From the NCBI GenBank assembly GCA_023404495.1, contig JAEYBE010000004.1, positions 735-64,734 of the forward strand: a stretch of DNA of 64,000 bases, given 5' to 3'. Within the stretch, counting starts at the first letter, position 1; every line of letters begins with the position of its first letter. Of this stretch, positions 45,465-57,100 are shown one piece after another. Both the position numbers and the translations under genes were made by a program. The stretch comes from Actinomycetes bacterium. Lineage in GTDB: Bacteria; Actinomycetota; Thermoleophilia; Solirubrobacterales; JACPNS01. Under the pieces are notes generated by a model that worked only from the letters and a program-made list of their open reading frames with translations, searched no databases and was not told the origin of the DNA.

Positions 45465-45713
45465 GTGGCGAACTTGACGATTGCAGTTGACGACGATCTC
45501 CTCAAGCGCGCGAGAGTTCGCGCAGCCGAGAACGGAACATCCGTGAACGCCGTGCTTCGCGAGAGGCTCGAGCAGTACGGCGGCGACGCCCGCGCAAGCG
45601 CGCTGGAGCGGTTCCTGGCACGCGACCACGGATCTCCCACGAATCGCGAGCCATACGTATGGAACCGAGAAGAGATCTACCGGGATCGCCTGAGGAAGGC
45701 CGCCGGCGATTGA
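45465..45713 (+). CDS. vapB: Antitoxin (ribbon-helix-helix/VapB-like)
   Basis: VANLTIAVDDDLLKRARVRAAENGTSVNAVLRERLEQY is an RHH-like N-terminus. An alternative start is ATG 45447. The stop overlaps the toxin start (TTGA). Confidence 0.6.
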   Translation: MANLTIAVDDDLLKRARVRAAENGTSVNAVLRERLEQYGGDARASALERFLARDHGSPTNREPYVWNREEIYRDRLRKAAGD

Positions 45714-46111
45714 AGGTCTTCGCCGACAGCAACGTTCTGATCTATGCGATCGACGACAGCGATCAGACCAAGCGACAGCGTGCGCGGCACCTGCTCGAAC
45801 AACACTGGTCACAGCTCGTGATCAGCACGCAGGTGATGCTCGAGTTCCACGCGGTGTGCAGCCGCAACGACGGAATCCACTCGAGTGCCATTTCGGAGAG
45901 TCTCAAGGATTTCGCGGCGCTGGATGTCATCCCGGCTGACGCGAGGGCCGTACTCACCGCGACGTCAATCGCCGACCAAATAGGCCTGTCGACTTCCGAC
46001 GCGATGATCGTTGAGGCCGCTACGCGCGGTGGTTGCGAATTGCTCGTCACGGAAGACGCGCAACTGCTGGCCGCGGACTTGCCCCTGGAGGCCAGAAACC
46101 CCTTCGCCTGA
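45710..46111 (+). CDS. vapC: PIN-domain toxin VapC
   Basis: LKVFADSNVLIYAIDD...TQVMLEF...SDAMIVEAA...LVTEDAQL carries the acidic PIN residues (D, E, D, D) at the expected spacing. TTG start. Confidence 0.8.
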   Translation: MKVFADSNVLIYAIDDSDQTKRQRARHLLEQHWSQLVISTQVMLEFHAVCSRNDGIHSSAISESLKDFAALDVIPADARAVLTATSIADQIGLSTSDAMIVEAATRGGCELLVTEDAQLLAADLPLEARNPFA

Positions 46112-46114
46112 GCC

Positions 46115-47173
46115 CTATTGCCCGAGCTCGGCCTTGTCGATCTGCTTGTTGTTGAGCTGCGACTCGTCGATCCCGACGAAGTTGCTGGCCTGCATCATCG
46201 CCGGGGCCTCGCCGCCGGTGGAGCCGTCGCCCTCGCGCCCGGCGAGCGCGATTGTGAAGTAGCTGCCGACCGGGCGGTCGTGACGGTGGGAGATGCCGCC
46301 GGCCATTTCGGTCAGCCGGGCGACCCGGTCTTCGGTGGCCGGGTGCGTCGCGAAGATCGTCGAGGTCTTGCCCTTGGCGTTCATCGACGGGGCGATCATC
46401 ATGTGCGCGATCGCCTCTTCAGGACGCTCAGTCGGGACCATGTTGCCGGAGATCTGATTGAGCGCCGACGCAAGGCCCTGCGGATAGCGGGTGAGCTCCG
46501 CGCCCGAGGCGTCTGCCACGTATTCGCGCTTGCGGCTGATCGACATCTGAATGATCGTCGCCGCGATCGGAGCGAGAATCACCGTCAGCAGCACGATCAC
46601 GAGCCCGATCCAGCCGCCGCCATTGTTGTTCCCGCGGCCGCCGCCGAACCAGAGGCTGTAGGAAATGATCTGCGCGATCAGCGCGATCGACCCGGCAAGC
46701 ACCGCCGCGTACGTCATCAGCTTGACGTCGAGGTTCTTGATGTGGGCCATCTCGTGCGCAAGTACCCCGTAGAGCTCCTGGTCATCGAGCACGTCGAGCA
46801 GGCCTTGGTTCACGCAGATCAGCGCTTGTTCCGGATTGCGACCAGCCGCGAAAGCATTGGGCGACGGGTCATGCGAGATGAACAGGCGCGGCATCGGCAG
46901 ACCCGCGGTGATCGAAAGGTTCTCGACCATGCGCCAGAGCTCGGGCGCCTCGGACTTGGATTTGACCTGCTTGCCGCCGGCAGCGAGCACGGCCATGTCG
47001 TCGCCGCCGAAGAGCGAGAAGAGGACCATCATCACGGCGATCGCCGCGACACCGATCGCGCCGATCGGGCCGACCCATAGGTAGAGCCCGTACCCGATGA
47101 CCGCATAGATCACCAGGAACCCGGCCATCAGCAGCCAGGACTTGCGCTTGTTGCTCGAGATCTGCTTGTACAT
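46115..47173 (-). CDS. htpX: M48 family zinc metalloprotease HtpX, with a ~70-aa C-terminal extension
   Basis: HEMAHIKN zinc motif, four TM segments, and ATHPATEDRVARL near the usual C-terminus. Confidence 0.9.
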   Translation of the reverse strand: MYKQISSNKRKSWLLMAGFLVIYAVIGYGLYLWVGPIGAIGVAAIAVMMVLFSLFGGDDMAVLAAGGKQVKSKSEAPELWRMVENLSITAGLPMPRLFISHDPSPNAFAAGRNPEQALICVNQGLLDVLDDQELYGVLAHEMAHIKNLDVKLMTYAAVLAGSIALIAQIISYSLWFGGGRGNNNGGGWIGLVIVLLTVILAPIAATIIQMSISRKREYVADASGAELTRYPQGLASALNQISGNMVPTERPEEAIAHMMIAPSMNAKGKTSTIFATHPATEDRVARLTEMAGGISHRHDRPVGSYFTIALAGREGDGSTGGEAPAMMQASNFVGIDESQLNNKQIDKAELGQ

Positions 47174-47179
47174 CTGCGA

Positions 47180-47866
47180 CTAGGCGGTCGGCGGACCCGG
47201 GGGGGCCGATCCCTCGCCGCCGGCAGGCGGGTTTGTCGGCGGCGCCGCTGGCGGCGCGGCCGGCGGGGCGGCAGGCGCGGCTCCAGCGGGAGGTGCCGCG
47301 AAGCTCGTCGCGTCGAACGAAACGCCCGGAACTTCCTTCTCGGCCGGGTCCTCGATCTCGAAGAACTCGTGCTCGGTGATCTTCGCGAAACCGGCGATGA
47401 TGCTGCTTGGGAACTGCTGAATCTTGATGTTCAGGTCGCGCACGTTCATGTTGTAGAAACGGCGGCTGGCCTGGATCTTGTCCTCGGTGTCTGTCAGCTC
47501 GTTCTGCAGCTGGAGGAAGTTCTGGTTGGCCTTCAGGTCCGGGTAGGCCTCTGCGACGGCGAAGAGGCGGCCTAGCGCCTGGCCGAGGATGCCCTCAGCG
47601 GCGGCCGACTGTTCCGGTCCGGACGCGTTGACGGCGTTTGTCCGCGCCTGCGTCACCGCGTCGAAGGTCTGGCGCTCGTGCGATGCGTAACCCTTGACGG
47701 TCTCAACGAGGTTCGGGATCAAGTCGTGTCGGCGCTTGAGCTGCGTCTCGATGTCTGAGAAAGCTTCTTCGGTGCGGTTGCGCAGCGAGATCAAGCTGTT
47801 GTACGTCGCTACGACGTAAATGATCAGCAGGACGACGATTACTGCGATAACGATCAGGGCGATCAT
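47180..47866 (-). CDS. lemA: LemA family protein with a Pro/Ala-rich C-terminal tail
   Basis: From ATG 47866: MIALIVIAVIVVLLIIYVVATYNSLISLRNRTEEAFSDIETQLKRRHDLIPNLVETVKGYASHE.... The tail is PPAGAAPAAPPAAPPAAPPTNPPAGGEGSAPPGPPTA. Confidence 0.9.
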   Translation of the reverse strand: MIALIVIAVIVVLLIIYVVATYNSLISLRNRTEEAFSDIETQLKRRHDLIPNLVETVKGYASHERQTFDAVTQARTNAVNASGPEQSAAAEGILGQALGRLFAVAEAYPDLKANQNFLQLQNELTDTEDKIQASRRFYNMNVRDLNIKIQQFPSSIIAGFAKITEHEFFEIEDPAEKEVPGVSFDATSFAAPPAGAAPAAPPAAPPAAPPTNPPAGGEGSAPPGPPTA

Positions 47867-47963
47867 CTGGGGCTGGTGCCTTTCTTGGGCGGTCGCGGTT
47901 GCGAGCGTTTCGTAGATTCTTACCGATCCGGGCGGCGTTCTTGTCGGCACATAAGCTTCCCGC

Positions 47964-48956
47964 GTGCCGCGCGAGTGGAATGAACTCTTCATCACCGGGG
48001 ATGACCCGGCCGAGACGCCCGTTCCCGAGGCCGCTCCCGAGCGCCGCCGCGGCATGTTCAATCGTCTGCGCGATTCGCTCGGGCGGACGCGGCAGGCGTT
48101 CTCAGCCGAGCTGCGCACGACGCTGTTTGACACTCTCGACGATCAGACCTGGGAGCGACTCGAAGAGCTCTTGATCTACGCCGATGTCGGTGCCCGCACC
48201 ACGGCGAAGGTCGTCGGTCAGCTCGAAACCGAGGTCGAAGAGGGCGACATCGCCGGCGGCGACGCAATACTCGCGCGGCTTGAGGAGCTGCTGGCGCAGA
48301 CCGCGACAACAGGCGAGGCGACGATCGACCTGCGCCAGAAGCCGACCGTGATCATGGTCTGCGGCGTCAACGGCACCGGCAAGACGACTTCGATCGGCAA
48401 GATCGCCTGGCACCTGCAGAAGGAGTTCGGCAAGAGCGTCCTGCTCGGCGCCGCCGACACTTTCCGCGCCGCTGCCACCGAGCAGCTGGGGGAGTGGGCG
48501 ACCCGCAGCGGAGCAGAGTTCGTAAGGGGAGCTCAGGGTTCTGATCCCGGCGCAGTTGCATTTGACGCGGTCGGCGCCGCCATCTCACGGGGCACCGATG
48601 TCGCGCTGATTGACACCGCAGGACGGCTCCATACGCAGGAAAACCTGCTCGAGGAACTCAAGAGGGTGCGCCGTGTGATCGAAAAACAGCTCCCAGGGGC
48701 GCCGCATGAGACGCTGCTCGTGGTCGACGCGACGACCGGGCAGAACGGTCTGCGCCAAGCGAAGCTGTTTGCCGAAGCGGTCGACGTCGACGGCATCATC
48801 CTGACGAAACTCGACGGCACTGCGAAGGGCGGAATCGCCCTGGCGATCACCGACGAACTGGGAATCCCAGTGAAGCTGATCGGGATCGGCGAGCAGCTCG
48901 AGGACCTGCGTCCGTTCGACCCCGCCGATTTTGCACGAGCCCTTGTCGCGGAGTAG
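47964..48956 (+). CDS. ftsY: Signal recognition particle receptor FtsY
   Basis: NG domain motifs: GVNGTGKTTSIGK, DTAGRL, TKLDGTAKGG. The start is ambiguous (GTG 47964, or ATG 48054 giving MFNRLRDSLGRTRQ). Confidence 0.95.
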   Translation: MPREWNELFITGDDPAETPVPEAAPERRRGMFNRLRDSLGRTRQAFSAELRTTLFDTLDDQTWERLEELLIYADVGARTTAKVVGQLETEVEEGDIAGGDAILARLEELLAQTATTGEATIDLRQKPTVIMVCGVNGTGKTTSIGKIAWHLQKEFGKSVLLGAADTFRAAATEQLGEWATRSGAEFVRGAQGSDPGAVAFDAVGAAISRGTDVALIDTAGRLHTQENLLEELKRVRRVIEKQLPGAPHETLLVVDATTGQNGLRQAKLFAEAVDVDGIILTKLDGTAKGGIALAITDELGIPVKLIGIGEQLEDLRPFDPADFARALVAE

Positions 48957-50371: not shown

Positions 50372-50373
50372 AG

Positions 50374-50829
50374 ATGCGCCGCCTACTAGTCGCGATCGCT
50401 CTGGTCGCCGCCTTCGCGGTCGTGGTTCCTTCCGTTGCGTACGGCGGATCGACCGGGACGACGGCTGCGAAGAAGAAAAAGAAGAAGTGCGCGCGTGGGT
50501 TCAAGAAGTCCGGCAAGAAGTGCGTTCGGCGAACGATCAAGCCAGCGAGCATCACACTCGTGATCGCCACAATCAAGGGCGGCCGCGTGAAATTCACCGG
50601 CTACTCCGAGTTCGGCAAGGCGACGACGGCGGACGCCTACTTGAGCGGGAAAGTCGTCGTCTCCGACGGAATCGGTATCGAGAAGATCAAGTTCAACCTC
50701 TTGGTCGCCAAGGGTCAGAACTTCACAAACTTCACCGCCAACTACAAAGTCGGGCTCAACAGTCCGAACATGACGGTGACACTGATCTGCAACGGCGTCG
50801 CTTCGAACAGCTACGCAGTCGCCAACTGA
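50374..50829 (+). CDS. Small secreted Lys-rich protein (151 aa), no recognisable family
   Basis: Signal peptide MRRLLVAIALVAAFAVVVPSVAYG, then TTAAKKKKKKCARGFKKSGKKCVRR and a beta-rich remainder. The ATG lies 2 nt after the SPFH stop. GC looks lower than in its neighbours. Confidence 0.6.
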   Translation: MRRLLVAIALVAAFAVVVPSVAYGGSTGTTAAKKKKKKCARGFKKSGKKCVRRTIKPASITLVIATIKGGRVKFTGYSEFGKATTADAYLSGKVVVSDGIGIEKIKFNLLVAKGQNFTNFTANYKVGLNSPNMTVTLICNGVASNSYAVAN

Positions 50830-50890
50830 CGGGCCGCGGGGCACCGCGCCCGTAGCCCCGTGATACCGAATATTCGTCTATCTGTGTCAC

Positions 50891-50919
50891 TTGACATCGC
50901 AACTTCCGACCGATAGGTT
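50891..50919 (+). promoter_or_regulatory. Near-consensus sigma-70/SigA-type promoter for the 2004-aa protein gene
   Basis: TTGACA (50891-50896), exactly 17 nt, then TAGGTT (50914-50919; fits TANNNT). It sits in an AT-richer 170-nt intergenic region. Confidence 0.55.
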
Positions 50920-50924
50920 GTTTG

Positions 50925-50943
50925 TACTGACACGATGTCAGTA
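50925..50943 (+). promoter_or_regulatory. Perfect 8-bp palindrome at the predicted transcript 5' end (operator or 5' RNA hairpin)
   Basis: TACTGACA-CGA-TGTCAGTA. A related half-site, CTTGACATC, overlaps the -35 box. Confidence 0.45.
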
Positions 50944-50999
50944 GGGGTGCAAGTTCCTGGGGAGGAGCTTGCGCAGGGACAACCATAGGGACAGGGATA

Positions 51000-53900
51000 T
51001 TGGTCATGACAGGTGGCTGCTTCGCTTCAGTTGGGCGCAGACTGGGACTCTCGCTCATTCTTTCGATCGCCGCGCTCGCGGGGATGTTTTCGCTCACGGC
51101 TCAGCCGAGCCACGCAACGGTCACGTTCACCGGGGGGACGCCGACAGTGACGATGGGCTCGAATGTCCCGGGCGCTCACTCGAGCATGACCGTGAACATG
51201 AGTCTTGGGGTGAACCCGAGCACGACCTATGCGCCGGGCGACGACGTCAAGCGCATCGTCGCCGACATCGCTCCGGGGATCATCGGCGATCCGACCGCTA
51301 TTCCCGCTGACCAGCGCTGCCTGAAGACCGACCCGACCCAGTACAAGGACTGTCCCGCCTCGGCGAAGGTCGGCACGATCACCGCGAGCGCGAACACGTG
51401 CGTGATGGTGATTCTGATCTGTGTCGACCTACAGCTCGACATCTCGGGCGACATCTACCAACTGAAGAACGGTCCCAATGGTCTGCCGACCACAAGCGCC
51501 GGCGCCAATGGCTTCCCGGAAGTGCCGACCTATCTCGGCATCAGCCTCAACGTGACAACTCCCATTCTTGGCAACCTCGCCGACCCGATGGGTCTGACCG
51601 GCAAGATCACGATCGCCAACAAGGACGATGCGCCGGTCGGTAGGGCAGAAGACTTCTCGATGCGGTTTGAGGTGGTGGAAGACGCTCCACGCACCGCCCA
51701 CACGGCGCTGGGTGACCAGGAGATCCGTCTCAATTCACTGGCGCTCACCTTCAACGCGTTGACGGCATCAGGCGTCCCCTTCATGACCAACCCGACGCGC
51801 TGCACGCCTTGGACCAGCAAGTTCTACGCGCGCGCCTACGACACCAACTCAAACGCCAACGCGGACATCGACCCGGCGGTCCCCGGAAACGATCACTACT
51901 CGGTCTCGCGCACGACCACGCCGAGTTGTGGGGGTGCGCTCGCGGCGTTCAACCCGAACGTGACGATGCAGACGTTCCCGTCCAAGACCGACGCGCCGGC
52001 GGCGCTGCGCGTGATTGTGACCAACGCCGAGGCGACCACGGCCGGCGGTCTCCAGAGTTCGCACATCAAGCGCATGGACATGACGATGCCCGACGGGTTC
52101 GAGATCAACCCGATGATGGCCAACTCGATCGCCGACCTCTCAAGTGTCTGCTCCTACGCGCAGTTCAACAGGACCAACCCGGACGTCACAAACACCTGCC
52201 CGGCATCGTCGAAGCTCGGCACGATCGTGCTCGACACGCCGATGATGTCCCAGCAGTTGACTGGTGGCCTCTATCTCGGACCTCCGGGCAGCACCGACAC
52301 CGACCGCTTCAAGCTCTTCTTCGCGCTCGACGATCCGAGCAACATCGTGAAGACCAAGGGGGAGGGGCGCGCGTTCGTCGACCACGACACCGGGCGTGTC
52401 ACGGCGACGCTTGGAGATCCGGCCTATGACGGCGGCAAGTCCTTGCCGGCATTCCTCTGGACGCAGATGCAGCTCGACTTCCAGTCGGGGCCCAACGCGA
52501 TGATGACCAATCCGCGGACGTGCGGAACGCACGCGGGTGAGGTGGTCTTCACGCCGTGGATGTCTCCGACCCAGGGAACTGTGACGCGCACCCCGTCGGT
52601 CACGGTTTCCTACGACGGGGCCGGCGCGCCGTGCCCAGAGGAGCCGTTCGAGCCGTTCGCCGAAGTTTCGCTCTCAGACACCACCGCGGGCGCGCATGCC
52701 GACGTGACCACGACCGTGAAGGTCCCGGCCCATAGTCAGGACCTGGCGCGCACGACGATGGCGATGCCGGCCGGCATGGGCGCCGCGATCGACCTGACGG
52801 CCAAGTGCACGCAGGCGAACGCCGCAAACGGCGCGTGCGCCTCGAACACGCGGATCGGCGATGTTGAAGTGAAGGTCGGCAACGACGAAGGCGACGCCGA
52901 CGCGCCGGGCTCAAACCTCGTGAAGATCGACGGCGCGATGTACAACACCGAGGTCACGTGGAACGAGGACCCTGCGCTGCGCAATCCGGCCCGATTCACG
53001 GCCGTCGTTCCGGCAGCCGTCGGGCCGTTCGACCTCGGCTATGTCGTGGTGCCTGTCGACATCACGCTGAACCCGGACATGAGCTTCAACGCCGTGACGC
53101 CGGAGGTCCCGACGCGCATGCTCGGCATCCCGGTACGTATGCGCAAGCTGAGCTTCACGCTCAAGTCGCACGTGGGCGGAACGCCGTTCATGACCAACCC
53201 GACAGTCTGCGGCACGCACGACGTCACGGCCAAGATGTGGTCCACGCAGCATCCGGATGAAGAGGACGCCGTGACTGCTCAGGCATCCTTTGATATCACC
53301 GGCTGCCCGAAGAACTTCAGCACCGAGAATCCGCCGACCTTCTCATTCGAGCCGACCAACACCGAGGTCGGTCGTCCGGTCGGTATTCGCGCCACCCTTC
53401 AGATGCCGGCCGAGTACGACCCGCCGGCCAGCGAGGTCAGCGTGCAGATGCCGCAAGGCATGCGGCTGAACCCCGCGCTCGCTTCCGGGATCGACTCGTG
53501 CGCCAAAGCCGAGGTCGACGCCGGCGCGGCTAATTGTCCCGAAGAGTCGAGGCTCGGCACGGTCGAGTTCACGACGCCATTGCTCTCCGGCACGTTCTAC
53601 GGAAAGATCTGGCTGGTCGAGCAAGGCCCGACAGCAGACGAGCGCTACCGCATCGCCTTTACGGTCCAGTTGCCGGGTCAGCTGCTTGTGGCGCACGGCG
53701 AGACGATCGTCGACGGTTCGAGCGAGCTGGTCGACGGTCTCGGAAACCGCGGCGGCTCCGGGCAGATCACCGTGACCTTCCGCAACATCCCGGCGGTCTA
53801 CTTCAACAGCTTCACGATGATCATGGAATCGGGCAGCAAGGCGATGCTCAGCAACGACTACGAGTGCGGCACGAGCACTGCGACAGCCACCGCATGGCCG

Positions 53901-56900
53901 CAGACAACCGGCGGCTCTCCGGTCACGATGACCGATTCCTACGAGACCTCGTGGGACGGCAACGGTGCGCCGTGTCCGACCTCGCGCGACCTCGATCCGT
54001 CGCTTGACGTCTCGCTCTCGAATTACCAGGCGGGTGCGGCGCCGGATATCGCGATGCACTTCCACCGCCCCGACAAGCAGCAGCATCCGAAGGTCATCCA
54101 GGTCGCGCTTCCCGCAGGCCTCGTCGGCTCCCCGGCGGCGGCCCCGGCCTGCGCCCAGAGTGTCGCGGCGCTCGGCAACTGTACGGATGCGAGCAAGGTC
54201 GGAGACTTCGACGTCACCGTCGGCCTCGACGACTCCAACTACACGGTCGCCGGTGGCGTCTTCAACACCGAGCCCGACTCCGATGAGCCCGCGCGGCTTA
54301 CCGCGATCATCGACGTCGAGATCGGACCGTTCGACCTCGGGAAGATCGTGCTTCCGATCTTCGTCGCGCTGGACCCCGACGACTATCGCCTGATCGCGAC
54401 CACTGACGAGATCCCGACGATGTATGAAGGTGTGCCTGTGCGCGCGAACGCGCTCGACCTGAATATTCGGGGTATTGCCGATCAGGGCACGCCGGGGACG
54501 GGAGACGACAAGCAGTTCCTGATCAACCCGCACCGCTGTGATCAGACTGGTGTCTTCACCGGGCACGTGACGTCGCACGAGGGTGGCGAGAAGACGCTGC
54601 CTGTGACGCTGCCGCAGAACTTCACAGGTTGCGCGGCGCTCAACTTCGACGGAGCAGGTAACGGCGTGACGATCGACAACGCTGTCGACACCGCATTCCG
54701 CCCGACGGCGCTCAACGCTGGGGTAACGCTTGGCTCGGGGGACACCCAGGCGACGCTGAAGGAGATGGAGCTCTCACTAAACGGCTTCCGGATCAACGCT
54801 GTCGCCGCGAAGGATGCCGTCGTCTGCAGCGACAGCGAACTCGACGCGGACAACTGCCCGAGCGGTTCGAAGGTTGGCGATGCCTGGCTCGACACGCCGC
54901 TGCTGGCGCCCGATGTCTCAGGTCACTCGCTGACCGGTGTCGTGCGGCTGCTCGAACCCGGGGCGACGGCCGATGACCGCTACCGGATCGCGATCGAACT
55001 CGACGGCCGTACGCGGATCGTGATGCGCGGAATCGCCGAGGTCGATGAGACGACGGGAGAGGTCGTTGCCCGCTTCTCGGACCTGCCAGACATTCCGTTC
55101 TCGGAAGTCAGTGTTCAGATGGACGGGCCGACTACGCCACTGCTGCTGAATCCGAGCACTTGCTCGCCAACCAGCGCGACCAGCGCGCGACTTGTCGCGT
55201 GGAGCGGCGCCGAGCGGACGTTCAACCCGACGGTTGTCGTCGACGGCTGCGCACCCGACCAGCCGTTCACGCCGGCGGTCGGTGTCGAGCTGAGCACGAC
55301 TCAGTCCGGCGCACACCCGAATGTCGACTTCACGATCACCAGGCCAGAAGATGATCAGAACGTCAAGTCGGTGAAGATTTCACTTCCGGCTGGCTTCGTC
55401 GGCAGCGCGGCAGCGGTCCCGCAGTGCTCGCTGGCGGCCGCGTCTGCGGGCACGTGCCCATCCGCGAGCAAGGTTGGAGACGTGAAGGCGAAGATCGGTG
55501 CCGGCGGTCAGACGGTCGATGGCGACGAGCTTGAGCTCAATGGGGAGATCTTCCTGACCGCGGGAGTCGGCGGCGACATCGCCGGGCTCGCAGTGCGCCT
55601 GCCGGCCGTCGCCGGTCCGTATGACCTTGGGGTGTTCACGCTCCAGGGCCGCGTCACGCTTCGCCCGTCGGACCACGGGATCGACACCGAGTTCGACGGC
55701 CTTCCGAAGATCTTCAAGGGCGTGCCGACACCGATTCGCGAGATGAAGGTCAAGCTCTACGGCGTCGCCCAATCGACCGGCAAGCCTTTCATGTACAACG
55801 CCACGTCGTGCGCACAGATGCAGATCGACAGCGCTTTCGGCGCTCACGAGGGCGGGGCGTTCTCGCCCGCAGGTGTCGACTACGCGGCAACCGGCTGCGG
55901 CGCGCGCTCGTTTGCGCCGACGATGTCGATGACCGCCACCGGCGGGGACGATGTGAATTCGCCGGCCTGGGACATCCTGCTGCGCAGGCCCGCGGGTGAC
56001 GCCACGCTCAGGAGCACGCAGCTCCTGCTGCCGACCTCGCTGACCGTGAACGTCGCCGGAATCGGCAACTCCTGCACGATTCAGGACGCCCAGGCTTGGA
56101 GCTGTCCGCAGATCTCGCGAATCGGCAGCGTTTCAATCGAGACACCGCTCCTGCCAACAGCCGTCAGCGGCGATGTCTACATGGCCAAGACGACAGGCGC
56201 CGGGACGCTGCCCGACATGTTGCTCCAGCTGGGCCCCCCGGTGAACATGCAGATCCGCGGAGTCAACAGCTTCGTGAACATCAACCAGATCCAGAGCGTC
56301 TTTGGTGGTCTTCCCGACTTCCCGTTTGACGCGATGCGAATGCGCCTTGACGGCGGTCCCAAGGGGATCCTCAAAGCGCGCAGCGGCAACTGCGGAGTCG
56401 GCAATGCCGACTACGGCAGTCACAGCGGTCAGAGCGCGTCCGGCCCGGTGTTGATCACCGGGGTCTGGAGTTGCGGTACGGCCTTCGGCGCCGGGACCTG
56501 CACCAAGCCCGCCGTTTCGATCAAGTCCAAGGGCGCGCGCAAGCTGAGGAACAAGAAGTCGACGACCGGCGTGAAGATCTCGCTGCCGGCCGGCTGTCCG
56601 GGCTTCAAGGCGGTGCAGGTGACATACCCGAGGGGGACCAAGGTCAACTCGCGCAACCTCAAGTACAACAAGAAGAAGCGTGCGACGCGCAAGAACCTGA
56701 AGAACGTCACGGGCAAGGCCGGGTCCAAGAAGCTGACGGTCGCCGATTTCAAGGCGGTCAAGGGCGGACTCAAGACGCGCAGGCCGCTCGCCGTCGGCAC
56801 GCGGTCGATCTCGATCGATACGCGCAAGTCGACTGTGCTGCTGCCGGCCAAGTCGCTCTGCGCGACGCTCAAGAAGGGCTCGCGCGGGTACGCCAAGAAG

Positions 56901-57014
56901 CTCAAGAAATGCCGCGCCAAGAAGATGTCGCTGACCGTCCGGCTGACGCGCCACGACGGCAGCATCGTGAAGTTCACCTACAGCTTCAAGGCAGGTCAGA
57001 AGACCCTGCGCTGA
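51000..57014 (+). CDS. Giant secreted repeat protein (2004 aa): signal peptide, eight tandem four-cysteine modules, and a polycationic C-terminal domain; family unknown
   Basis: Signal peptide ...LAGMFSLTAQPSHA/TVTF. The motifs C-x9-16-C-x3-[ST][KR][VLI]G and [FML]xxN[PDA]xxC recur with about 200-280 aa periodicity. Third-position GC is host-like. The probable start is ATG 51006 (AGGGA 8 nt upstream); the track start is TTG 51000. Confidence 0.85.
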   Translation: MVMTGGCFASVGRRLGLSLILSIAALAGMFSLTAQPSHATVTFTGGTPTVTMGSNVPGAHSSMTVNMSLGVNPSTTYAPGDDVKRIVADIAPGIIGDPTAIPADQRCLKTDPTQYKDCPASAKVGTITASANTCVMVILICVDLQLDISGDIYQLKNGPNGLPTTSAGANGFPEVPTYLGISLNVTTPILGNLADPMGLTGKITIANKDDAPVGRAEDFSMRFEVVEDAPRTAHTALGDQEIRLNSLALTFNALTASGVPFMTNPTRCTPWTSKFYARAYDTNSNANADIDPAVPGNDHYSVSRTTTPSCGGALAAFNPNVTMQTFPSKTDAPAALRVIVTNAEATTAGGLQSSHIKRMDMTMPDGFEINPMMANSIADLSSVCSYAQFNRTNPDVTNTCPASSKLGTIVLDTPMMSQQLTGGLYLGPPGSTDTDRFKLFFALDDPSNIVKTKGEGRAFVDHDTGRVTATLGDPAYDGGKSLPAFLWTQMQLDFQSGPNAMMTNPRTCGTHAGEVVFTPWMSPTQGTVTRTPSVTVSYDGAGAPCPEEPFEPFAEVSLSDTTAGAHADVTTTVKVPAHSQDLARTTMAMPAGMGAAIDLTAKCTQANAANGACASNTRIGDVEVKVGNDEGDADAPGSNLVKIDGAMYNTEVTWNEDPALRNPARFTAVVPAAVGPFDLGYVVVPVDITLNPDMSFNAVTPEVPTRMLGIPVRMRKLSFTLKSHVGGTPFMTNPTVCGTHDVTAKMWSTQHPDEEDAVTAQASFDITGCPKNFSTENPPTFSFEPTNTEVGRPVGIRATLQMPAEYDPPASEVSVQMPQGMRLNPALASGIDSCAKAEVDAGAANCPEESRLGTVEFTTPLLSGTFYGKIWLVEQGPTADERYRIAFTVQLPGQLLVAHGETIVDGSSELVDGLGNRGGSGQITVTFRNIPAVYFNSFTMIMESGSKAMLSNDYECGTSTATATAWPQTTGGSPVTMTDSYETSWDGNGAPCPTSRDLDPSLDVSLSNYQAGAAPDIAMHFHRPDKQQHPKVIQVALPAGLVGSPAAAPACAQSVAALGNCTDASKVGDFDVTVGLDDSNYTVAGGVFNTEPDSDEPARLTAIIDVEIGPFDLGKIVLPIFVALDPDDYRLIATTDEIPTMYEGVPVRANALDLNIRGIADQGTPGTGDDKQFLINPHRCDQTGVFTGHVTSHEGGEKTLPVTLPQNFTGCAALNFDGAGNGVTIDNAVDTAFRPTALNAGVTLGSGDTQATLKEMELSLNGFRINAVAAKDAVVCSDSELDADNCPSGSKVGDAWLDTPLLAPDVSGHSLTGVVRLLEPGATADDRYRIAIELDGRTRIVMRGIAEVDETTGEVVARFSDLPDIPFSEVSVQMDGPTTPLLLNPSTCSPTSATSARLVAWSGAERTFNPTVVVDGCAPDQPFTPAVGVELSTTQSGAHPNVDFTITRPEDDQNVKSVKISLPAGFVGSAAAVPQCSLAAASAGTCPSASKVGDVKAKIGAGGQTVDGDELELNGEIFLTAGVGGDIAGLAVRLPAVAGPYDLGVFTLQGRVTLRPSDHGIDTEFDGLPKIFKGVPTPIREMKVKLYGVAQSTGKPFMYNATSCAQMQIDSAFGAHEGGAFSPAGVDYAATGCGARSFAPTMSMTATGGDDVNSPAWDILLRRPAGDATLRSTQLLLPTSLTVNVAGIGNSCTIQDAQAWSCPQISRIGSVSIETPLLPTAVSGDVYMAKTTGAGTLPDMLLQLGPPVNMQIRGVNSFVNINQIQSVFGGLPDFPFDAMRMRLDGGPKGILKARSGNCGVGNADYGSHSGQSASGPVLITGVWSCGTAFGAGTCTKPAVSIKSKGARKLRNKKSTTGVKISLPAGCPGFKAVQVTYPRGTKVNSRNLKYNKKKRATRKNLKNVTGKAGSKKLTVADFKAVKGGLKTRRPLAVGTRSISIDTRKSTVLLPAKSLCATLKKGSRGYAKKLKKCRAKKMSLTVRLTRHDGSIVKFTYSFKAGQKTLR
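51117..56498 (+). repeat. Internal tandem coding repeats: 8 modules arranged as 4 alternating A-B di-modules of about 440 aa
   Basis: Cys-loop anchors start at nt 51318, 52149, 52806, 53499, 54150, 54825, 55425 and 56073. Module-end Cys residues lie at nt 51801, 52521, 53208, 53865, 54537, 55161, 55809 and 56391. Confidence 0.75.
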
Positions 57015-57100
57015 TCGCCCTGACGGAGCAGCGGTTCGCGGCGTGCGCCCGCCATGTGCACGCCGTGTCCGCGCGGTCCTGCCACTAGAGTCAGCGCCGA

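Follow-up and report, generated by a model that had tools for sequence, protein, structure and literature searches.

An eight-module, cysteine-patterned secreted protein with a basic C-terminal domain in Thermoleophilia: a candidate charge-anchored surface fibre

Locus and features

This work concerns the open reading frame (ORF) at positions 51000..57014, forward strand, of a stretch of 64,000 nucleotides from an Actinomycetes bacterium of the order Solirubrobacterales (contig JAEYBE010000004.1, positions 735 to 64,734), and this whole stretch is called the window below. The ORF encodes a protein with a predicted mass of ~206 kDa, which is composed of a signal peptide, eight homologous modules and a strongly basic C-terminal domain with a predicted immunoglobulin-like (Ig-like) fold, and which may be a surface fibre held at the cell by charge. 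The ORF had been reported in a preliminary description made from the letters alone; it is present in the window, and its translation agrees with every string quoted there. Gene callers and the closest relative place the start at the ATG at 51006, which gives 2002 amino acids (aa) up to the stop at 57014. Amino acid positions below follow the 2004-aa frame of the preliminary description. The parts of the protein were located as follows, with the evidence used given in brackets.

51006..51119, +: Sec-type signal peptide, MTGG...AQPSHA / TVTF (translation, hydropathy, orthologues)
51120..51929, +: module 1, aa 41-310, divergent A-type, in which aa 124-146 are an additional hydrophobic insert with two Cys (module BLASTP, alignment)
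51930..52634, +: module 2, aa 311-545, B-type (module BLASTP, alignment)
52635..53306, +: module 3, aa 546-769, A-type (module BLASTP, alignment; modelled)
53307..53975, +: module 4, aa 770-992, B-type (module BLASTP, alignment; modelled)
53976..54632, +: module 5, aa 993-1211, A-type (module BLASTP, alignment)
54633..55250, +: module 6, aa 1212-1417, B-type (module BLASTP, alignment)
55251..55898, +: module 7, aa 1418-1633, A-type (module BLASTP, alignment)
55899..56474, +: module 8, aa 1634-1825, divergent B-type with net charge 0 (module BLASTP, alignment, charge)
56475..57014, +: C-terminal polybasic Ig-like domain, aa 1826-2004, followed by the stop (motifs, AlphaFold2, alignment, charge)

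Conservation of the gene

Intact orthologues were found at 94% identity in L009 (a Thermoleophilaceae metagenome-assembled genome, MAG), at 76% in L007 and L008, at 75% in L001 (a Solirubrobacterales MAG) and at 60% in L005 and L006. The preliminary description had named a disrupted reading frame in relatives as a finding that would speak against it; the frame is uninterrupted in all five orthologous genomes examined, and the ratio of non-synonymous to synonymous substitution rates (dN/dS) against L009 is 0.056 for the whole gene. Per module this ratio lies between 0.04 and 0.10, uniform along the chain, and it is 0.13 in the C-terminal tail. The neighbouring genes give 0.034 (ftsY), 0.012 (SPFH) and 0.023 (ffh) in the same comparison; the large-protein gene evolves faster than these housekeeping neighbours. 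The gene is under strong purifying selection, and the intact orthologues together with the low dN/dS argue that the protein is translated and constrained over its full length. The GC content of the ORF equals that of its flanks (0.60-0.66).

Signal peptide and modules

At the N-terminus a basic n-region is followed by a hydrophobic h-region, which is the top Kyte-Doolittle window of the protein, and positions -3 and -1 carry small residues. Cleavage is predicted after S-H-A, where the orthologues show AQA/N or ADA/N. No lipobox was found in the N-terminus. As judged from the alignment, the export signal is of the Sec type and not of the twin-arginine translocation (Tat) type, since the two arginines are not conserved among the orthologues and no Tat motif is formed. 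The Sec-type signal peptide of the preliminary description is thus borne out by translation, hydropathy and the orthologous cleavage sites.

The signal peptide is followed by eight homologous modules of ~200-270 aa each, arranged in the order A-B-A-B without spacers. Self-BLAST of the whole protein returned the identity match only, and the modules were compared with each other by BLASTP instead. Among the A-type modules, modules 3, 5 and 7 match each other at E-values of 1e-25 to 1e-32, with module 1 as a divergent member; among the B-type modules, modules 2, 4 and 6 match each other at 1e-17 to 1e-22, and module 8 matches this even class more weakly, at ~1e-7 to 1e-8. A-type and B-type modules match each other at 1e-4 to 1e-7, which points to one ancestral module for both classes. 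The module comparisons and a nine-way alignment of the modules and the C-terminal domain agree with the eight modules and the internal periodicity proposed earlier. The motifs proposed for odd and even modules were fully confirmed for modules 3, 5 and 7 and for modules 4 and 6; modules 1, 2 and 8 carry them only in part.

By sequence comparison the A-B di-module is the repeating unit. Four full-length matches to a di-module profile in the window protein support its earlier designation as the amplified unit. The units of the window protein appear to be old, as its di-modules are only 25-34% identical to each other.

Within module 1, the insert at aa 124-146 (51369-51437) contains two extra Cys and reads TITASANTCVMVILICVDLQL; it is the most hydrophobic stretch after the signal peptide. 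The orthologues carry a different hydrophobic insert at the same position of module 1. This insert may be a functional tip. A scan of the protein sequence for LPXTG, for a C-terminal transmembrane helix or other hydrophobic segment and for a CxEQ thioester motif found none of these, and motif scanning and Pfam agree with the earlier statement that LPXTG, SLH and twin-arginine signatures are missing.

Cysteine pattern and fold of the di-module

Regular expressions reproduced every motif position quoted in the preliminary description. The first element, a short Cys loop followed by x3-[ST][KR][VLI]G, is present in all eight modules, in module 1 only with a relaxed pattern because an A stands there instead of S/T before K-V-G. 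The strict motif occurs 7 times, compared with a mean of 0.001 in 2000 shuffled sequences. The second element, [FML]xxN[PDA]xxC, ends modules 1-7, and module 8 has the degenerate form ILKARSGNC. The spacing from the third to the fourth Cys is 27-42 residues in 8/8 modules. The protein has 39 Cys; as one (C7) belongs to the signal peptide, the mature chain has 38, the number counted before. The skeleton of four Cys per module occupies the same columns in the nine-way alignment, so that regular expressions and alignment both uphold the shared pattern, and across 31 di-modules from 19 proteins these columns are invariant or at least 90% conserved.

Modules 3 and 4 were modelled together with AlphaFold2 from an alignment of the 31 di-modules. 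The model is an all-beta structure of two domains, with a predicted local distance difference test (pLDDT) of 84.5 and a predicted template modelling score (pTM) of 0.76, and it supports the beta-modules suggested earlier. In this model the first Cys pair flanks a short helix-loop and the second pair flanks the terminal beta-hairpin of the module. Each module probably has two disulfides, one closing a loop of 10-16 residues and the other closing the terminal beta-hairpin; the positions in the model and the family-wide invariance are consistent with this number, and the pairing is read from them.

The best PDB matches of the di-module in Foldseek are tandem Ig-like regions, among them those of SpaP (3opu), of a membrane-anchored protein of C. 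diphtheriae (3lso), of Cna, Cnm, ClfA, ClfB, SdrD and SdrG, along with transglutaminase C-terminal barrels and integrin alpha legs. Against the MSCRAMM/Cna folds the Foldseek probability reaches 0.99, with template modelling scores (TM-scores) of 0.19-0.31 and a root mean square deviation of 17-20 A, the query being a two-domain model. From the model, the modules would belong to the broad space of Ig-like adhesin and stalk folds, in which the search singled out no specific homologue.

Basic C-terminal domain

The last 170 aa contain 34 Lys, 15 Arg, 3 Asp and 0 Glu, a recount that agrees with the composition given in the preliminary description. Over the last 179 aa the net charge is +46 and the isoelectric point (pI) 11.6; for the stalk (aa 41-1825) the net charge is -79 and the pI 4.6. 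The charge of the polycationic tail thus stands as first described, and its nature was revised: it is a conserved and confidently folded Ig-like domain and not a loose tail. The AlphaFold2 model is a beta-sandwich with short helices (pLDDT 88.6, pTM 0.82).

Four invariant Cys recur in the tails of 11 homologues, together with the motifs YPKGTKVNKKLLK, KNLKNVTGKAG, LKKC and DGS..Y.Y..KAG.K.FR. The four Cys and several of the tail motifs are common to P0002-5, P0021-23, P0027 and P0038. In the nine-way alignment the C-terminal 179 aa align as a degenerate ninth module, which is probably what the tail is, as far as its sequence goes. A tail profile scores 240 bits on the ORF of the window. Other homologues have a second tail subtype, which is free of Cys and equally high in positive charge. 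As both subtypes, distinct in sequence, are strongly basic, charge is the conserved property. Pfam and PDB sequence searches with the 11 tails gave noise only. A search with a narrower tail alignment matched four GTDB MAG loci, all encoding (A-B)n proteins, and nothing in JGI metagenomes.

Family and distribution

Searches of Pfam, NCBIfam and PDB sequences with the whole protein, the 31 di-modules and 8 typical members returned noise only. The statement of the preliminary description that no family is recognised therefore holds for curated libraries. It does not hold beyond them, since the di-module profile, run exhaustively with HMMER on 1.84 billion representatives, matched the following numbers of clusters (at 50% identity).

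E <= 1e-3: 9,727
E <= 1e-10: 6,726
E <= 1e-30: 3,566

All members that were looked up bear the name "hypothetical protein". Those among them with an organism name come from MAGs of Actinomycetota, Solirubrobacterales or Thermoleophilaceae; tblastn against plasmids gave no match. Typical members, of ~900-1500 aa, have two di-modules and do not extend beyond the final module. In a multi-repeat subfamily the number of di-modules is 3 to 16 (family range 2-16), and the length reaches 7,161 aa. Of the 33 members with at least three di-modules 25 carry the basic end domain, compared with 5 of the 137 with two. Several members with at least three di-modules and no basic domain stop a few residues past the last module, and these exceptions may be truncated gene calls. 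In the giant homologues the central units are 50-80% and up to 100% identical, and the terminal units are divergent. The high identity of the central repeats points to recent tandem amplification, as in the stalks of fibrillar adhesins.

Typical members with two di-modules often lie in a conserved gene cluster together with three partners, which have no match in Pfam (L003 6723-15033; L004 5967-15850; L013 2571-10951; L014 7001-10549). The first, with 1,100-1,500 aa, is encoded upstream, and its stop overlaps the start of the family member; the second is secreted, has ~250 aa and carries the same Cys-loop...S.IG motif; the third has ~235 aa, an N-terminal hydrophobic segment and GAVT..KI repeats. 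The second and third are 69% identical between the two loci compared. None of the three partners is found in the window.

Flanking elements and genomic context

Two elements were located upstream of the gene.

50891..50919, +: putative promoter, TTGACA (50891-50896), 17-nt spacer, TAGGTT (50914-50919) (read by eye)
50925..50972, +: conserved structured 5' leader, within a leader region at 50915-50985 (palindrome, covariation, fold energy)

The preliminary description had given the gene its own promoter. A consensus promoter scan called none upstream of the gene; the putative pair, found by eye, has a position that is conserved upstream of the orthologues, and a promoter is suggested on this basis. 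The leader, which is placed between the putative -10 box and the start codon, contains a perfect palindrome, TACTGAC-N5-GTCAGTA, at 50925-50943, which is unique in the window (0 expected by chance) and recurs at L009 4451-4469, L007 7920-7938, L001 3792-3810 and L005 7882-7900. A second hairpin at 50949-50972 carries the invariant CUGGGGAGG in its loop region. Every close orthologue has the leader upstream of it, even one whose genomic context is different. Substitutions that change both sides and keep the pair were seen in 7 of the 19 predicted pairs, six of them in the second hairpin, and the folding z-score is -5.3. Searches of Rfam and of JGI metagenomes with the leader gave no match. Its role could be that of an operator for a repressor, or that of a hairpin which stabilises the mRNA or has a regulatory function.

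At the 3' side of the stop, 34 nt before ffh, a GC-rich 12-bp hairpin without a U-tract is found at 57037-57067. Its stability is not significant against shuffled sequences (z = -1.65), and co-transcription with ffh by read-through is therefore possible.

The gene order in the window is smc, epimerase, PIN, M48 (minus strand), LemA (minus strand), ftsY, nfeD, SPFH, a 151-aa gene, the large-protein gene, ffh, ..., rimM, trmD, rplS, lepB, rnhB, and it confirms that the gene stands between the ftsY and ffh blocks as first described. The position between the SPFH gene and ffh is kept in the three closest orthologue groups. The 60% orthologue (L005 223-18996) adjoins genes for Wzy_C, Polysacc_synt, NTP_transf_3 and Fe-ADH_2, possibly a wall-glycopolymer cluster, and after the orthologue comes a tandem paralogue, a further family member longer than 1,562 aa; a 34% relative sits in yet another context. 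A functional tie to the signal recognition particle (SRP) genes was rejected because these two relatives occupy other contexts; the place of the gene between ftsY and ffh is particular to its lineage.

Partnership with the 151-aa gene (50374-50829, +) was rejected as well. This gene lies within a strain-specific insertion of ~490 bp (50372-50864), which is absent from the 94% relative L009, and it is also missing from the L007 and L001 loci; none of the fetched loci has a homologue. Co-occurrence with it, proposed earlier as a check, thus fails in the orthologous loci. The 151-aa protein is secreted and contains six consecutive Lys (K6) as well as a basic Cys loop, CARGFKKSGKKC. Pfam gave no match for it and the tail profile does not detect it; to the final 45 aa of the large protein it shows weak similarity (E = 6e-4, without composition correction).

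Further upstream, a PIN-domain gene (45659-46111, +) stands between smc/epimerase and ftsY, next to a divergent pair on the minus strand encoding an M48 peptidase (46115-47173) and LemA (47180-48133). The order M48-LemA-ftsY is kept in L007 and L009; the PIN gene is missing from L007.

Interpretation and alternatives

We read the protein, with a probability of roughly 0.5, as a sortase-independent and disulfide-stabilised surface fibre which is anchored electrostatically. It would be exported by Sec and undergo oxidative folding outside the cell, where disulfides would be introduced by the MdbA-type machinery of Actinomycetota. MdbA catalyses the oxidative folding of exported actinobacterial proteins (PMC9974433). 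The eight beta-sandwich modules would then form a rod of four rigid A-B di-modules. The basic Ig-like domain would bind non-covalently to an anionic envelope polymer or membrane surface and hold the C-terminus at the cell, and the acidic stalk would be repelled outward, projecting the divergent N-terminal module. Across the family the fibre would be longer or shorter according to how far the A-B unit has been amplified in tandem (2 to 16 copies). We infer the electrostatic anchor and retention at the surface from the charge dipole (-79 in the stalk, +46 in the tail) and from the fact that the basic domain goes together with amplified repeats; the putative ligand and a possible adhesive role are likewise conjectural, as is the disulfide pairing. 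Beside the dipole, the lack of a C-terminal transmembrane helix and of LPXTG is in favour of the fibre reading as a whole, as is the orthologue next to genes for Wzy, polysaccharide synthesis, a nucleotidyltransferase and Fe-ADH_2. The interpretation first offered is thereby kept in its secreted chain, tandem beta modules and conserved Cys, with the tail changed to a folded domain.

Several points weigh against this reading. The fold matches are generic: for the di-module Foldseek gives E-values of ~1e-4 and TM-scores of only 0.15-0.3, and for the tail it gives Ig-like domains in general at TM-scores of 0.3-0.55 (DUF4466, YcnI, BcpA, SdrD, BslA, EbpB and the receptor-binding domain of alpha-2-macroglobulin, A2M). 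Pfam searches recognised no adhesive or anchor domain. In limited searches all occurrences of the basic domain were on (A-B)n proteins and none on another passenger, so that a portable anchor is not supported. The presumed anionic ligand is hypothetical, the host belonging to an uncultured Thermoleophilia lineage, and the location at the cell surface is deduced from sequence and models.

The same anatomy of signal peptide, tandem Ig-like modules and basic folded domain would also fit a released scaffold of an extracellular matrix or biofilm, in which the basic domain binds extracellular DNA, acidic exopolysaccharide or mineral and clay and the stalk cross-links. This is unlikely in our view, even if by computation it is indistinguishable from self-anchoring. 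The matrix proteins BslA (tail) and RbmA (di-module) are among the fold matches, and neither a covalent nor a membrane anchor is present; on the other hand, a fibre that is anchored at the cell and projects outward would need a stalk that is acidic and an end that is basic, and the basic domain is C-terminal, the usual place of Gram-positive anchors (PMC8286594). A large acidic protein with a separate basic region resembling a wall-binding one could also be a self-assembling S-layer or sheath protomer which the basic domain fixes to the wall, on the model of the S-layer proteins of Lactobacillus (PMC3666127). The good -35 box, the strongly structured and conserved leader, which could stabilise an abundant mRNA, and the strong purifying selection would suit such a protomer. 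A copy number of 2-16 di-modules among the homologues fits poorly with a fixed lattice, paralogues occur in tandem, and Pfam found no SLH, SLAP or other S-layer domain. S-layer proteins are usually poor in Cys, and the mature protein has 38 cysteines. We consider this explanation rather improbable.

The basic domain might instead be a sorting or secretion signal for other machinery, removed or used for covalent attachment in the manner of the C-terminal domain (CTD) of the type IX secretion system (T9SS). It is a discrete, conserved and folded beta-sandwich at the extreme C-terminus, and in this it is similar in kind to the T9SS CTD. We consider such a role very improbable, since Por_Secre_tail (PF18962) and other sorting-signal families gave no match, no dedicated machinery is encoded nearby in a gene context that varies among orthologues, and the extreme charge is kept in two sequence-distinct tail subtypes, which argues that charge itself is selected. 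That the protein is a protease trap of the A2M kind, or some other multi-domain enzyme or inhibitor, is scarcely credible: Foldseek lists A2M, complement and TEP proteins with MG domains, and the A2M receptor-binding domain for the tail, yet the former matches have probabilities of 0.08-0.2 and TM-scores of at most 0.1. The CxEQ motif of the thioester is lacking, no catalytic domain was recognised, and no Pfam match to MG or A2M domains rises above noise, the only one being MG4 at E = 0.1 in one tail homologue.

Going beyond the charge-anchored fibre itself, we tentatively suggest that the di-module and the polybasic Ig-like end domain define an undescribed class of fibres in Thermoleophilia and other Actinomycetota, sortase-independent and disulfide-stapled, with a length tuned by copy number from 2 to 16 and with the end domain as a new polyanion or wall anchor. 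If true, the polybasic anchor would fill part of the "no known anchor" gap among fibrillar adhesin-like proteins. A charge-based anchor of this kind would be a new module for surface display and would help to explain how adhesin-like proteins without LPXTG are retained. Thermoleophilia are abundant Actinomycetota of soil and groundwater whose cell surfaces are essentially uncharacterised. The di-module family comprises ~9,700 clusters without coverage in Pfam, NCBIfam or PDB, and two domain models, one for the A-B di-module and one for the basic end domain, could annotate thousands of proteins.

Comparison with known systems

Fibrillar adhesins are defined by tandem stalk domains, an adhesive domain and an anchor, and about half of them are without a known anchor (Monzon et al. 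2021, PMC8286594). The window protein has the tandem stalk domains in its eight homologous modules. Pfam recognised no adhesive domain in it, with module 1 being divergent and carrying the hydrophobic insert, and searches by motif, hydropathy and Pfam found none of the known anchors (LPXTG, SLH, LysM, GW, choline-binding, transmembrane helix). With the Gram-positive fibrillar adhesins (MSCRAMM/Cna, the C-terminal region of SpaP/AgI-II, SdrD, SasG/Rib-type), which are also the best Foldseek matches, it shares a Sec signal, a long chain of tandem Ig-like domains, a repeat number that varies by tandem amplification and divergent terminal units. It differs from them by the lack of an LPXTG/sortase signal and of a Pfam match to any stalk, adhesive or anchor family, by the A-B repeat unit, by the polybasic folded C-terminus and by modules of ~200-270 aa that each have two conserved pairs of Cys in place of isopeptide bonds. 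Collagen_bind, SdrG_C_C, Cna_B and Big_8 gave no match even at E <= 10 (whole protein) or E <= 1 (di-modules), and none by PDB profile search.

In the S-layer proteins SlpA and CbsA of Lactobacillus a dedicated region binds teichoic acids (PMC3666127). By analogy, the likeness would lie in a separate region of an acidic surface protein that binds non-covalently to anionic wall polymers. The tail of the window protein is unrelated to this region in sequence and in Pfam; it is a Cys-containing Ig-like sandwich, and the remainder of the protein is a modular stalk and not a lattice domain. Actinobacterial sortase pilins such as SpaA and FimA have disulfide-dependent Ig-like domains that are folded by MdbA (PMC9974433, PMC5478893). 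The likeness here is in exported Ig-like domains with disulfides, which are inferred in our case, and BcpA, EbpB and 3lso among the fold matches are pilins. Unlike these the window protein is one giant polypeptide and not a polymer of subunits; a pilin motif and a sortase signal are lacking, and no sortase is encoded next to it.

DUF1775/YcnI, a copper-binding Ig-like domain, matches weakly in Pfam at the start of module 7 (15.3 bits) and in the tail (13.2 bits), below the gathering threshold of 25 bits for PF07987, and YcnI is among the fold matches of the tail with TM-scores of 0.36-0.49. Mature YcnI binds copper through an N-terminal His, for which an internal module has no counterpart, and the resemblance probably reflects shared Ig-like topology only. 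The overall kind of the window protein, a tandem Ig-like surface or extracellular protein, is already known; distinctive are the large undescribed module family, the di-module as repeat unit and the candidate charge-based end domain.

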